Positions 11,444 through 60,159 of a stretch of DNA of 64,000 bases are shown in pieces. This DNA comes from Octopus sinensis (Eukaryota), in the NCBI RefSeq assembly GCF_006345805.1, contig NC_043000.1, positions 30,194,001 to 30,258,000 on the forward strand, in the 5' to 3' direction. The notes under the pieces were generated by a model that was given only the letters and a program-made list of their open reading frames with translations, searched no databases and was not told the origin of the DNA. Position numbers and translations under genes: made by a program. The stretch's first letter is position 1. Each line of letters begins with the position of its first letter.

Positions 11444-11790
11444 TTTGTTGTTAACACAACGTTTCGGCTGATATACCCTCCAGCCTTCATTAGGTGTCTT
11501 CAGGAAATTTCGAACCTGGGTTCATATTCCTAAGGTATTTTTCGATGGAATTATTATTATTATTATTATTATTATTATTATCTCATTCCTAATGTATTTT
11601 TCAATGTTATAATAATAATAATAATAATAATAATAATAATTATAAAAAACATCAAAAAATACCATAGGAATGAGAAACCAGGTTCGAAATTTCCCCAAGG
11701 CACCTGATGAAGGCTGGAGAGTATATCAGCCGAAACGTTGCGTTAACAACAAACAAGATGAGTACAAATATCCGTCGAATGTAAATAATG
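11444..11790. mobile_element. Inverted pair of Penelope-like pLTR fragments with hammerhead motif, separated by (ATT)n/(TAA)n
   Basis: arms 11444-11547 and 11650-11753 are reverse complements of about 104 bp. Confidence 0.75.
11699..11744 (+). ncRNA. Minimal type I hammerhead ribozyme motif
   Basis: ggcac-CTGATGA-a-ggctg..cagcc-GAAA-CGT-T-gcgtt; palindromic stem III ACGT; stem I is better paired in the inverted copy (gacac/gtgtt). Confidence 0.6.
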
Positions 11791-12019
11791 TATGAAATGA
11801 AGTGTTTTCTTCAAGAACACGAAGCGTCGACCGCTCCAGATATCGAAACGACATTTTTATGTTCATGAGTCTAAAAGTTGCGCTTCTCCATGTTTCTCCA
11901 ATACATTTCAAATTACTTCAACAAGTAGTGCTGATTGTCACATTTTTCCGGTTTAAGAATACTAACACAGTGGGTGACATCCATTTATGTAAAAGTTACT
12001 TTGGAAGTTCATAATAATT

Positions 12020-12187
12020 TCACATTTAACCACAAGGGCAGCAGTTTTGGGAATTACACCGACCCCAGTGCTAAACTGGTACTTTATTAATTAACCTGAA
12101 AAGGATGTTAAGCACAGTCGACCTCGGAGAAGTTTGAACTCAGAATTTTGCCCGGCATACTAACGATTCTGTCAGCTCGCTGCCTTA
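12020..12187 (-). mobile_element. SINE group A, degenerate
   Basis: gtcgacctcgg..tttgaactcagaa..ctaacgattctgtcagctcgctgcctta. Confidence 0.8.
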
Positions 12188-12258
12188 GTCTGAGAGTTCA
12201 TAGTAAACTTAAACAACTGGGGTTCAGTTTTCTATTTCAGAATATTTACTTTAATAAT

Positions 12259-12655
12259 GTGGCGAGCTGGCAGAAACGTTAGCGCACCGGGCGAAATGCG
12301 TAGCCGTATCTCGTCTGCTGTTACGTTCTGAGTTCAAATTCCGCCGAGGTCGACTTTGCCTTTCATCCTTTCGGGGTCGATTAAATAAGTACCAGTTATG
12401 CACTGGGGTCGATATAATCGACTTAATCCATTTGTCTGTCCTTGTTTGTCCTTTCTGTGTTTAGCACCTTGTGGATAGTAAAGAAATAGGTATTTTGTCT
12501 GCCGCTACGTTCTGAGTTCAAATTCCGCCGAGGTCGACTTTGCCTTTCCTCGTTTCGGGGTCGGTAAAATAACTACCAGCCGCGTACTGGAGTCGATCTA
12601 ATCGACTGGCCCCCTCCCCCAAAATTTCGGGCCCTGTACCTAAAGTAGAAAAGAA
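12259..12655 (+). mobile_element. SINE group A, young dimeric form
   Basis: head ggcgagctggcagaaacgttag; body tacgttctgagttcaaattccgccgaggtcgactttgcc occurs twice. Confidence 0.9.
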
Positions 12656-13327
12656 TATTTGCTTTATTACTTCATCAGTAATAAATCTCTGAGCGAGATA
12701 TAAATAGTAGCTGCACCACATCGTGAAGTATATTTGGCACTTAAATGTGGCTAACCCGTAAGAGTGGATGCTACTGTAGCTTGTAGCCTCAGGAGGACAC
12801 TTCCTCCAGCTGGCTATTGACACACTTTCTGTGCCCTATAATCAGTCTTATTCAGTTATAAATGCACACATTTTATTTCGATTTAAGTGACTGGTTTCAG
12901 AATTCCTTATATTTCTCTTAAAACTGATTAGTTTAGCTGTTTATCCGTATAACTTATATTAAATGTTGCTTCCATTTCCGTCGAGAAACTGCGTATCGAT
13001 ACTCTATTCTGGCCAGGTTTCAATTTTCCTTTTGCTATTGCAAATAATACTGTGTCTGATATCAAGATATACTTATATTATTTAGGCCAGGGATAAAAAA
13101 GAAAAAAAAAACGATAACTAATCGTGACTTGATGTTCATATGACAGGGTGTTAGTGGACATATAAAACATTGTCTCGTATTATCATCTCATTAATTTATG
13201 CAGGGTTGATAAGAATAGATTAAAACATCAAATATTAAAGTGTTCTGGAAGGAAGTGTATATATGGCCATAAACATTGTCTTCATCTATTTATGTGATCA
13301 TATAACATATCATTCAAGCATTTCGTG

Positions 13328-13636
13328 GCGCTCCGTCGGTTACGACGACAAGGGTTCCAGTTGATCCAATTAATGGAACAGCCTGCTCGTGAAATTACCG
13401 TGCAAGTGGTTGAGCACTCCACAGACACGTGTACCCTTAACTTAGATCTCGGGGCGATTCAGCGTGATACAGAGTATGAAAAGGCTGGCCCTTTGAAATA
13501 CAGGTACAACAGAAACAGGAAAAAAGAGGGAGAAATTTGTGGTGAGAGAGAGAACAGCAGGGTTCGCCTCCCACTCCCTGCCGGAGCCTCATGGAGCTTA
13601 AGATGCTTTCGCTCAATAAACACTCCTAACGCCCGT
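13328..13636 (-). mobile_element. SINE group C, 5'-truncated
   Basis: reverse complement of the body and tail of 2086-2466. Confidence 0.88.
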
Positions 13637-13788
13637 TACCCATTTTTTTCAACCTCGATCTCGTTGTTTGTTTACATCTGGTGTCTCGGATACGAAACGT
13701 CGTAACAAAATCAGTGTTGGCTATAATTTCTATAGAAAACCTGTAGAGATGTCATTAAAACGTCGTTATGTTTTATGATTAAATGTTA

Positions 13789-14256
13789 GAGTAATCACTC
13801 ACTATATCACGGTTCACCTATTGCGCCCTCAGTACATCGCGGATTCTTCTGGTTAATCTATGTAAATTCATATCGTGGACTCTTCGGCATATCGCAGGTT
13901 TCTGCGGCCGATAGATATTTATATAATTCTAATTATTTATGCGGTAAAATTTGCATTTTCATGCCTAAAATTGAATAAGCCAATAAATAAAAGTAGAGCA
14001 CTTTATAACAAATTAACTAATATGTATTAAAAGAAAATACGTAGTGTACCGTAGATGAGTAAAGGATCGCACATACTGTATGGAAAACGAAACTCGAGAG
14101 GCGAGTGTGTGGTGGTGTTTTGCATTTATAATAAAATAAATATATACAAAGTATAAAAATAATAAAAAAACATTCAGTACTCTTTCTACTTCGCGGATTT
14201 TCCCCTATCGTAGGAGGTTTTGGAACGTAACACCCGCGATAGTGGAGTGATTACTG
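13789..14256 (-). mobile_element. Tigger/pogo-like MITE, second copy
   Basis: TA flanks on both sides; reverse complement of 9917-10382. Confidence 0.85.
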
Positions 14257-14456
14257 TATTAGGAATTTTATCCAAAAAAAAATGTTTGAATATTTTCTGT
14301 ATTATCGAAATATATACAGTTTATGGCACATAAATTTTAAGAACATAATCTGTTATGTACCCCACAGGGTCATATAGACCTCGGTTCTGAACCACTGGTC
14401 TAGACCCTCGACTGGAATGCTTGCCAATACCTTCTGTCACTAATGAAATGGGAGAA

Positions 14457-58225: not shown

Positions 58226-58236
58226 TATATATGTGT

Positions 58237-58302
58237 ACATTTTATGTGTACGTGTGTGCGTTTGATCGCGCGATCAAACGCACACACGTACACATAAAAT
58301 GT
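58237..58302. repeat. Perfect 66-bp palindrome with no spacer
   Basis: acattttatgtgtacgtgtgtgcgtttgatcgc|gcgatcaaacgcacacacgtacacataaaatgt. Confidence 0.97.
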
Positions 58303-58505
58303 TTTCTACCCCTTGATGGATTTCTCGGCAGTGACCAGAATGTAGCGCTTCTTGCCAACTTGCGCCCGTACACATATATAGAACAGTAAACACACACATG
58401 TCTCTAAGTAGATTTTCTCTCGCCCCATATAATACATCTCATATTCTTTAAATAGTCAGAACTTTACTCTCGGTCACAAAGAACATCTACACACCCCGTG
58501 CCCTC

Positions 58506-58967
58506 ACCCACCGAAATGACCGCTGCCTGACCCGTTAAAATCTTCAACGCACCCACCACCCGTTTTCAACATACACTGATAAACAGTTTGACCATGGGCT
58601 CTTAGGAGCCTAATTCGATTTGTTTTGCTCCGCCTCTGTTCTGTTTTTGTTTTTTCCAACGGATTTCCTATTTCTTCCTGAAGAGAAAGACACAATATGG
58701 TCTCATTATTCAATCGGATTTTGGTAAATTGTGCCTTTCGAAACACGTGTAGAATGAAATAAAACGATTTCTGTTCAATCTTCGTTCAACTCCATTTCTT
58801 CAATTCACTAATAATATTAAAATTCAATTATCCGCACCAACGCACGGTTGCAACACCATATGGTTGTACCTCCAACCGTGCTGTCTTCTGCTGTGATTTT
58901 TGCTACCAAGGTATCGGTTAAACTTTTGATTAATCTGCAACAAGATTATTCATCTTTCTATTTCACA
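58506..58967 (+). mobile_element. About 460-bp hammerhead-bearing element, copy 2 (may extend upstream to 58237)
   Basis: match to 53356-53812. Confidence 0.85.
58669..58761 (+). ncRNA. Type I hammerhead ribozyme
   Basis: tatttcttc-CTGAAGA-gaaagacacaat..attgtgcctttc-GAAA-CACGTG-TA-gaatgaaata. Confidence 0.85.
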
Positions 58968-59388
58968 TATATATATATATATATATATATATATATATAT
59001 ATATATATATATATGTATTTATATATATATATATATATATATATATATATATATATATATATTATATATATATATATATATAATATATATATATATAATA
59101 TATATATATATATTATATATATATATATATATATATATATATATTTATAGTGTATCGTACAACCAGCTGGAGAATGTTTCCTGGGGCTAAATAACAGTAA
59201 CATTCGTCCTAACCAGGAGTATCATTTTATGTTTGCAAATCATTTTTACTTTGGTGTACTGTCACTGAATCTCTCGTTGAGATATTTAGAAATAATATAT
59301 ATTTTCTATTCATTATATCAGTGATGTGGGTCACTTTGAAAATTATATATTTCGAACAGGAATTTCACAGCGCCATCTCTAGCCAAGC

Positions 59389-59445
59389 AGTTATTCTGTG
59401 CTGACGAAGAGAAAAAGCTAGAAACTACGGTATGCAGATATAACT
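59389..59445 (+). ncRNA. Type I hammerhead-like motif with degenerate stem II
   Basis: agttattctgtg-CTGACGA-agagaaaaagcta-GAAA-C-tacg-G-TA-tgcagatataact. Confidence 0.55.
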
Positions 59446-59513
59446 TTGTGCTGAGTGGGGACTTTAAACTCACGTGTCCGAAAATATAAGGATACAGATA
59501 GTGTGCCGTATAG

Positions 59514-59878
59514 AAGCACTCCGTCGGTTATGACGACGAGGGTTCCGGTTGATCCGATCAATGGAACAGCCTGCTCGTGAAATTAACATGTAAGTGGCTG
59601 AGCACTCCACAGACACGTGTACCCTTAACGTAGTTCTCGGGGATATTCAGCGTGACAAGGCCGGCCCTTTGAAACACAGGTACAACAGAAACAGGAAGTA
59701 AGAGTAAGAGAAAGTTGTGGTGAAAGAGTACAGCAGGGATCACCACCATCCCTGCCGGAGCCTCGTGGAGCTTTAGGTGTTTTCGCTCAATAAACACTCA
59801 CAACGCCCGGTCTGGGAATCGAAACCGCGATCCTACGACCGTGAGTCCGCTGGCCTAACCACTGGCCATTGCGCCTCC
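59514..59878 (-). mobile_element. SINE group C, full length
   Basis: perfect 14-bp TSD agtgtgccgtatag at 59500-59513 and 59879-59892. Confidence 0.95.
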
Positions 59879-60159
59879 AGTGTGCCGTATAGCCAGTTGG
59901 AGACGATATTTCCTGGGGCTAAATAACAGTAGCATTTCTCCAAACGAGGACTGCTACATTATGTTGGCAAATAACCTTTACTATATATATATATATATAT
60001 ATATATAGACTATATTAGAGGAAAAACCAGAACCAAGGCAGAACTGGTATCTCAAATCATTTAGAATAATTTAATTAGGATAAGGGTAATTTGATTTCTT
60101 ACAGCCGTTCCGGTGATAATCCAGCGTAGGTAGATCAGAAATGTACTAAACCTCACATA

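Follow-up and report, generated by a model that had tools for sequence, protein, structure and literature searches.

Hammerhead ribozymes in an Octopus sinensis locus: Penelope-like element ends and ORF-free tandem units with the footprint of Penelope-like integration

A 64,000-nucleotide stretch of the 2.72-Gb genome of Octopus sinensis (C4:30194001-30258000, hereafter the window) is rich in microsatellites and carries five unrelated families of hammerhead ribozyme motif, which raises the question of what these ribozymes belong to and which machinery placed them there. An earlier note on this DNA had seen in them five non-coding mobile RNAs, mobilised in trans by the reverse transcriptase (RT) of Penelope-like elements (PLEs). 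The explanation that we consider quite likely divides the set: families F1, F2 and F4 are the 3' ends of Poseidon-, Neptune- and Hydra-type PLEs, respectively, whereas F3 and F5 are multicopy tandem units free of open reading frames (ORFs), probably copied in trans by a PLE RT/GIY-YIG protein. The presence of the PLE tail footprint in such ORF-free hammerhead arrays is genomic evidence that PLE machinery moves retrozymes.

Hammerhead cores (CTGAnGA) lie at 11704 (F1), 44425 (F2), 51610 on the reverse strand (F3), 53521 and 58678 (both F4) and 59401 (F5). A descriptor scan and family alignments revealed at these sites the core CUGAnGA...GAAA, an NUH cleavage site and stems I to III in type I order, at all five places named beforehand and with the stem III sequences given for them. 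The type I descriptor matched the window seven times against a mean of 1.03 (maximum 5) in 60 dinucleotide shuffles, and four times against 0.33 (maximum 2) when stem II was made obligatory; the seventh match, at 16139 on the reverse strand, is devoid of stem II and is taken as chance. Failing the stem II test are the F2 and F5 copies, whose stem is damaged or degenerate and is restored by the majority letters of the family alignments (31 and 37 copies, respectively), and the F1 copy has one mismatch in stem I. N7, the free core position, is the sole strongly polymorphic core column in the F1, F3 and F5 alignments. Rfam at its gathering score returned neither a hammerhead nor a tRNA match in the window. 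Judged from sequence, the six sites are confirmed as type I hammerhead folds, their self-cleavage being predicted. The five units share only low-complexity DNA matches with each other, as expected of the unrelated elements that the earlier note took them for, and five hammerheads in one window is an ordinary catalogue for a PLE-rich invertebrate genome. A first look at the whole genome yielded 2583 (F1), 710 (F2), 2699 (F3), 1254 (F4) and 2328 (F5) candidates; per family, 40 candidates were scored and 30 loci fetched, a few of these being the same place twice.

The families part company in what adjoins them. Same-strand PLE coding sequence lies upstream in 17 of 30 F4 loci and in 10 of 30 F2 loci (two of which were also used as queries), and an ORF runs into the F1 unit in 27 of 30 loci selected for their Poseidon-type ORF; linked PLE coding sequence was found in none of 30 F3 and none of 30 F5 loci, where three unrelated neighbours were seen. 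In F3 (461 nt) and F5 (351 nt) the common sequence stops at the unit, which joins to itself head-to-tail at one shared junction, and the longest ATG frame spans 29-78 amino acids. More than 1.1 units are present in 12/28 F3 and 26/27 F5 loci, and two or more complete hammerheads in a row in 3/28 and 8/27, respectively, in samples biased to full units because the query was one unit. Together with F3b, a young sister family of F3, they are tandem ORF-free units some hundreds of base pairs in length, each with a type I hammerhead, as is characteristic of retrozymes; their GC content is 33-40% and no long terminal repeat layout was seen. The designation as non-coding mobile units is thus borne out for F3 and F5, which are more than solo termini of PLEs, and fails for F1, F2 and F4.

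F3b, which lies outside the window, was reached through a motif in the loose ends of contigs aligned to F3. The motif has 943 exact matches in the genome, mostly in arrays with a period of ~473 nt [examples at L298 (C1:46878406-46881422), L305 and L308]; they make up a tandem hammerhead family with 473-nt units, at least two subfamilies and, along the entire unit, 70% identity to F3. The hammerhead pattern is present in 74 of 78 F3b units, and stem III of F3 and F3b is a perfect 12-nt palindrome in three versions with which stem I covaries; its preservation at 70% identity and the confinement of strong core polymorphism to N7 speak for constraint on the ribozyme. The predicted fold of F3b reaches -147 kcal/mol against -100 +/- 5, that of F3 and F5 lying 1-3 standard deviations below mononucleotide shuffles. 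No PLE coding match was found in 50 F3b stretches. The contigs, from four runs presumed to be RNA, cover F3 in many variants and contain no unit joints; contigs of this kind cannot show strand, cleavage or circles.

The evidence tying these arrays to PLEs resides in how their insertions end. PLE copies often carry a tail at one end only (PMC8557442, as far as its accessible text goes), a feature called unique to PLEs, and a Poseidon protein has been shown to cleave AT-rich DNA on both strands and to initiate at two sites inside the RNA, which set the limits of the tail (PMC11167929). The corresponding arrangement, in which one arm of a two-armed insertion has the long (tailed) end and the other the short (tail-less) one, was found in 30 of 34 scoreable F1 loci (38 loci among 88 being two-armed), 8 of 9 F4 loci, the three scoreable F2 loci and 10 of 13 F3 loci, none of which had the same end twice. 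Tails measure ~30 nt in F1, 45 in F2, 65 in F5, 84 in F3 and F3b, and 146 in F4. F3 3' ends are fixed at register ~461 in 21 of 28 loci and at 378 in six, and those of F5 at ~100 in 15 of 27 (within 97-104) and at ~165 in eight. A (TA)n tract follows the 3' end in 28/30 F4 and 25/28 F3 loci against a background of 9%, in 11/30 F2 loci under a wider test and at 10/77 F1 ends. The association with microsatellites that the earlier note had drawn is therefore a target preference in F3 and F4 and, more weakly, in F2 and F5, and internal sequence in F1; duplications, fold-backs and abutting simple repeats were otherwise found as described, save that (AAT)n at the 11704 site is part of the element and not its target. 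Mobilisation by PLE RT, likewise proposed there, gains support from this footprint.

F3b displays the same anatomy at its sharpest. Nearly all insertions lie in (TA)n and consist of two divergent arms with their 5' ends joined and their 3' ends outward, reaching 5.3 units per arm and 6.9 units in all, in a non-random set in which 15 of 20 extra stretches were picked as multi-hit arrays. In 24 of 26 two-armed loci the 3' ends of the arms fall at different registers, one at ~338 and its partner at ~422, the remaining two loci being unscoreable; the same end never occurs twice, and the two fixed end sites are 84 nt apart. The longer arm can be either one (15 vs 9 loci). Simple fold-back copying is excluded by 7 of 24 loci, in which each arm has a part that is missing from the other. 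These regularities bear on the proposal, made in the accessible part of a 2026 preprint (bioRxiv 10.64898/2026.07.22.740005), that tandem arrays arise at the DNA level, here through unequal crossing-over or repair by fold-back once a single copy had inserted, in the manner of minisatellites. Units within a locus do share variants, as such an origin would predict, but complementary arm registers fixed in 24/24 scoreable loci, with the longer arm on either side, arm pairs that are not sub-copies of each other and the dispersal of arrays over chromosomes make it very unlikely. Twin priming of the L1 type, which fits only 1/24 loci, was discarded as well, and the use of two different RNA molecules per insertion found no support, there being no fixed differences between arms where both have two units or more. 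Differences amount to 0.44% within arms and 0.51% between arms, and each insertion therefore reflects one sequence variant.

The insertion route that we propose would build on these observations, namely ORF-free units in head-to-tail arrays, often as two divergent arms whose 3' ends sit at two fixed registers, one per arm, within (TA)n in F3 and F3b. By extension from the Poseidon protein (PMC11167929), a PLE protein would cut both strands of AT-rich DNA and reverse transcription would begin at two internal sites of the RNA, whose spacing would be the tail, each DNA end priming one arm; in F3b both arms do share a sequence variant, and 7 of 24 loci have arms neither of which can have been copied from the other. 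The template is somewhat more probably than otherwise a monomer circle, formed by hammerhead cutting and ligation and copied over several rounds, and with a palindromic stem III cleavage would require two neighbouring ribozymes. Uniform multi-unit arms maintained over 30% divergence would most simply be renewed from a circle. An unlikely, though not negligible, variant has PLEs mobilise F3, F3b and F5 from linear read-through multimers, with the hammerhead as a passenger and no circle. It draws on the in vitro finding that uncut RNA is the dominant substrate (PMC11167929), on the near-identity of young arrays to each other and on a report that eight of nine tested Xenopus retrozymes did not cleave (accessible text of bioRxiv 10.64898/2026.07.22.740005). 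Linear copying would, however, only keep or shorten arrays, yet uniform multi-unit arrays persist across ~30% divergence; moreover, stems III and I covary, and L1-type twin priming on one linear RNA predicts that the sequence of one arm begins where that of the other leaves off, as is seen in 1/24 loci. Uniform F3b arms alone do not prove a circle, since young arrays are also close to each other. F3b arm lengths tend to lie just above whole unit numbers (17/51, p 0.018), as might happen if an RT on a circle ran into the point where it had started, or through microhomology; TA-rich microhomology does occur at that register, and we therefore draw no support for a circle from this excess.

Several results weigh against copying by PLE machinery or against the circle. 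F5 fits less well than F3, with 4 of 9 inverted loci clearly complementary in their ends and (TA)n after 9/27 3' ends. Hammerhead cleavage is unneeded for insertion in vitro, where the Poseidon protein uses uncut RNA (PMC11167929). An F3b array and its closest counterpart elsewhere differ by 0-3.4%, and changes that are shared within an array yet private to it are seen in few cases. No sequence-matched coding parent of F3, F3b or F5 emerged among the Hydra-type loci examined, and with 40 of up to 2700 candidates scored per family a rare coding parent could be missed. A Hydra-type RT beside F3 in L011 was considered as the parent and dismissed as a separate insertion whose family lacks F3, F3b and F5; the other Hydra-type families examined have different hammerheads and are likewise devoid of these units. 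Were such parents rare or overlooked, all five families could be solo or truncated pseudo-long terminal repeats (pLTRs) of autonomous PLEs, which does apply to F1, F2 and F4, in a genome with at least three more Hydra-type families. We consider this improbable for F3 and F5, given that they self-join at one shared junction beyond which common sequence stops, that linked coding was seen in 0/30 F3, 0/30 F5 and 0/50 F3b loci as against 17/30 for F4, and that F3b arms are several units long.

The parentage of F4 is shown by an unbroken Hydra-type PLE frame (L325:1238-3934, in C4:144779500-144785500), in which 899 open codons (895 amino acids from the first Met) lie between two F4 pLTRs; the window copy at 53356-53816 is 99% identical to this locus. 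The single ORF encodes an RT followed by a C-terminal GIY-YIG domain lacking CCHH and has the DKT motif, which with the (TA)n target and the canonical hammerhead are hallmarks of the Hydra clade. Two others are altered: RWK reads RWL, and in place of the CxCX5C linker stands a low-complexity insertion of ~190 amino acids, with one Cys, between RT and endonuclease (relatives have ~700 amino acids in all). The comparison with Hydra RTs was made by eye on a supplement alignment, rather than by a tree. A Naiad-type parent was rejected on account of the C-terminal endonuclease. The only named animal match of the F4 protein is to Argonauta, and searches of the PLE proteins returned no significant Pfam family and only noise against PDB sequences. 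Further Hydra-type families (L338-L345, L346, L333/L334, L337) carry other hammerhead-like motifs in the same loci, several with a palindromic stem III, and are unrelated to F1-F5; one family has many near-identical copies.

F1 presents a different situation. Downstream of the stop codon, the ORF-selected Poseidon loci carry a tRNA-like head of 75 nt (present in 28/30, contiguous with the ORF in 27/30), then (AAT)n and the F1 hammerhead, L328 being a near full-length copy. DKG, an RT, a GIY-YIG domain without a linker Zn-finger, a minimal pLTR hammerhead with an extra base before stem II and the ~30-nt tail place the parent in the Penelope/Poseidon clade, by features and not by a tree. A Poseidon-type ORF is also reached through the inverted F1 arm of L078 (C23:5979824-5982992), a two-armed copy with an ORF end without head in one arm and part of the head in the other, possibly owing to two templates or a later deletion. 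The head has intact A- and B-box motifs and, among 27 tRNAs of the same genome, aligns best to tRNA-Arg(TCT) (z 8, other tRNAs z 3-6), the sole Arg isoacceptor in that sample; ARAGORN in relaxed mode produced many false calls. Exact patterns of equal length matched the genome 502 times for upstream-plus-head and 3428 times for head alone; ~85% of head-bearing copies do not continue upstream past the head, as short interspersed elements (SINEs) do. Thirty copies taken in genome order comprise 24 that start within -6 to +5 of the head, four that start inside it and two that continue upstream; a mutation at this place in the reference copy makes several of the starts appear 4-5 nt too late. In F4, for comparison, sequence directly upstream of the query is common to as many as 25 of 29 partners. 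Copies that begin with a tRNA-related head bearing A and B boxes are typical of SINEs, and the whole short unit is Poseidon 3' untranslated region (UTR), its 3' end thus being common to the mobilising autonomous element.

From these sequence features, the tRNA-derived head in the F1 3' UTR is rather likely an internal RNA polymerase III (Pol III) promoter, and initiation by Pol III would be the likeliest cause of the F1 5' ends. At that same level of confidence, the head would give rise to RNAs of ~270-350 nt inserting by the route proposed above, and short F1 would be a SINE that arose within its own PLE. The alternative of an independent SINE with no more than its tail in common with Poseidon was rejected, as the head is present in ORF-bearing copies too. 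Short and ORF-linked copies have no fixed diagnostic differences, and short F1 is therefore a short transcript class of the same family, not a separate lineage. This lack of differences also counts against Pol III initiation, as do the silence of Rfam, which calls neither a tRNA nor a hammerhead in F1 loci, and a small GCCC-AC-GGGC hairpin at the head start that could stop RT and at which numerous inverted copies turn back on themselves. On these grounds the 5' pile-up might result from the RT stalling or snapping back at this hairpin, or from cutting of the full-length PLE RNA by an RNase P/Z type of activity, and we regard this as possible but the less probable course. Non-inverted copies begin at the head as well, often with 2-6 leader bases; both boxes are preserved and the unit has hardly any T4 terminator (a T4 run in 1/19 copies); and a 4-bp hairpin would be a weak stop for an 85% drop. 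Taking both lines together, we tentatively picture F3b as a recently active, viroid-sized hammerhead circle of ~473 nt, inserted by a dimeric PLE RT/endonuclease that would prime from each end of a cleaved (TA)n tract, at two fixed sites, and go round one circle up to seven times, alongside a Poseidon 3' UTR whose tRNA-derived Pol III promoter would spawn thousands of hammerhead SINEs in a Sm-alpha-like birth, a combination that we hold somewhat doubtful as a whole.

F2 belongs to an old Neptune-type PLE, assigned by its linker and not by a tree: translations of L097, L099, L107 and L113 contain, upstream of the hammerhead, an RT and a broken C-terminal GIY-YIG preceded by a CX4CxxC linker, within the CX2-5CxxC range of the Neptune clade, all copies being old and broken. 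The earlier note had remarked that no recognisable ORF adjoins the hammerheads, and none has a PLE coding match beside it in the window (Table 1), whose sole such match is a Neptune-like RT fragment at 25084-25665 on the reverse strand, with no descriptor-grade hammerhead beside it. That hammerheads mark PLE pLTRs and retrozymes agrees with three families of PLE ends and two retrozyme-like ones.

Table 1. Hammerhead-bearing units and associated arms in the window (cleavage sites are predicted).
Feature	Position	Strand	Description
F1 inverted arm	11444..11582	-	Core mutated (CTAATGA); 3' end shortened
F1 truncated 3' UTR, Penelope/Poseidon-type	11611..11793	+	(AAT)n; hammerhead 11699-11743, palindromic ACGT stem III, cut after GUU at 11739; 5'-truncated, without the family's tRNA-like head; ends at short (tail-less) end
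F2 inverted piece	43587..43752	-	95% identical to 44234-44399
F2 3' UTR, old Neptune-type PLE	44212..44581	+	Hammerhead 44419-44460, AGTACT stem III, stem II damaged, cut after 44454; then (TATG)n
F3 461-nt tandem unit	51310..51977	-	1.44 units; hammerhead ~51527-51618, 12-nt near-palindromic stem III, cut after GUC at 51535; abuts TA-rich repeats with its long (tailed) end at 51310
F3 second (divergent) arm	51984..52088	+	Ends at short end against (TA)n
F4 pLTR, young Hydra-type PLE	53356..53816	+	5'-truncated; hammerhead 53511-53605, stem III ACACGTGT, cut after 53594; ends in (AT)40
F4 older copy (~90%)	58370..58969	+	Core 58678, cut after 58751; ends in (AT)n; small fold-back beside it at 58237-58313
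F5 351-nt tandem unit	59150..59982	+	~1.3 units; hammerhead 59389-59445, stem II damaged, cut after 59432; interrupted by a SINE (59514-59879) with a 14-nt target duplication, AGTGTGCCGTATAG; short end precedes (TA)13

The SINE inside F5 has related copies at 2090-2465, 13328-13635 and elsewhere, and an abundant SINE with an internal 184-nt tandem duplication occupies 12255-12640, 33506-35707 and 50075-50477; we take the window's SINEs to be octopus-type. Clustered in (TAA)n tracts are 3' fragments of long interspersed elements (LINEs), at 17865-24144 and 32620-32751, which we presume to be R4/Dong-like (restriction-like endonuclease). LINE RT fragments at 56905-58005 on the reverse strand, between the two F4 copies, are presumably APE-type (CR1/RTE-like).

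The mover of animal retrozymes, and the circle as its template, have so far been argued from co-occurrence. PLEs were put forward as helpers in PMC7229834 and PMC7761336, the accessible text of the latter, a 2020 review, stating that the repeats show no motif pointing to a helper. The 2026 preprint (10.64898/2026.07.22.740005) derives a PLE origin from distribution and pLTR trees; in its accessible part the invertebrates are three insects and one anthozoan, no mollusc is included and insertion anatomy is unused. For cephalopods, 31 Penelope-like families are listed as recently active in the O. vulgaris annotation, the word ribozyme being absent from its accessible text (PMC13282606), and the giant-squid paper counts 235 hammerheads (PMC6962438, accessible part). 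Within the literature searched, in which most subscription papers are missing, we found neither cephalopod retrozymes nor the tail rule in retrozymes reported, nor any PLE 3' UTR with a tRNA-like promoter; Repbase, Dfam and the library of PMC13282606 may already contain these families. Young F3b arrays and an unbroken Hydra-type ORF in one genome, along with an in vitro PLE assay (PMC11167929), make the question directly testable, and the tRNA-headed Poseidon 3' UTR offers a concrete origin for hammerhead SINEs. If true, the F3b circle would identify the machinery and the intermediate of animal retrozymes, and the Poseidon unit would be a PLE-driven SINE.

Set against known systems, and within the accessible text of the sources cited in this paragraph (PMC11167929 and PMC6685494 apart), F4 resembles Hydra-clade PLEs such as Hydra-1_Obim of Octopus bimaculoides in its single ORF, N-terminal S.K.IP.P, DKT, a C-terminal GIY-YIG without CCHH, a CxxC near the end, a canonical hammerhead and a (TA)n target (PMC8557442). 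The hammerhead listed for Hydra-1_Obim differs from that of F4, which is hence a different family, and the F4 motifs have no match in the accessible supplement text of that paper; F4 also departs from its Hydra relatives in length (895 vs ~700 amino acids), RWL for RWK, the missing CxCX5C linker, clear pLTRs and the 146-nt tail. F2 shares with Neptune-clade PLEs the CX4CxxC linker before GIY-YIG (PMC4209133, PMC8557442). F1 is like Penelope/Poseidon-clade PLEs in DKG, absence of a linker, the minimal stem III (ACGT), the additional base ahead of stem II and the ~30-nt tail (PMC4209133, PMC8557442, PMC11167929), and differs in the tRNA-derived head and (AAT)n before the hammerhead. Its short form recalls the Sm-alpha/Sj-alpha repeats of schistosomes, in which a Pol III-type promoter precedes a type I hammerhead in a short retroposed unit (reviewed in PMC6765202); those are tandem satellites, whereas F1 copies are mostly single or inverted pairs, and in F1 head and hammerhead are the 3' UTR of a coding PLE itself, so that helper and origin are visible. 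F3, F3b and F5 are akin to metazoan non-LTR retrozymes (PMC7229834; bioRxiv 10.64898/2026.07.22.740005) in that each ORF-free tandem unit has a single type I hammerhead, in a GC content under 50% and in coexistence with PLEs, the F3 and F3b units (461-475 nt) being slightly longer than the 150-450 nt of that group; F3 and F3b differ in forming dispersed short two-armed arrays with a PLE tail footprint, a layout that the accessible text does not describe, and in the long 12-nt palindromic stem III, circles being putative here. ORF-free, head-to-tail copies attributed to PLE machinery are likewise found in MRC1 of Chlamydomonas (PMC8557442) and the short PLEs of Heliconius (PMC6685494). The parts are of known kinds; what is added is a quantitative footprint tying ORF-free arrays to PLE integration and a PLE 3' UTR as a source of SINEs.

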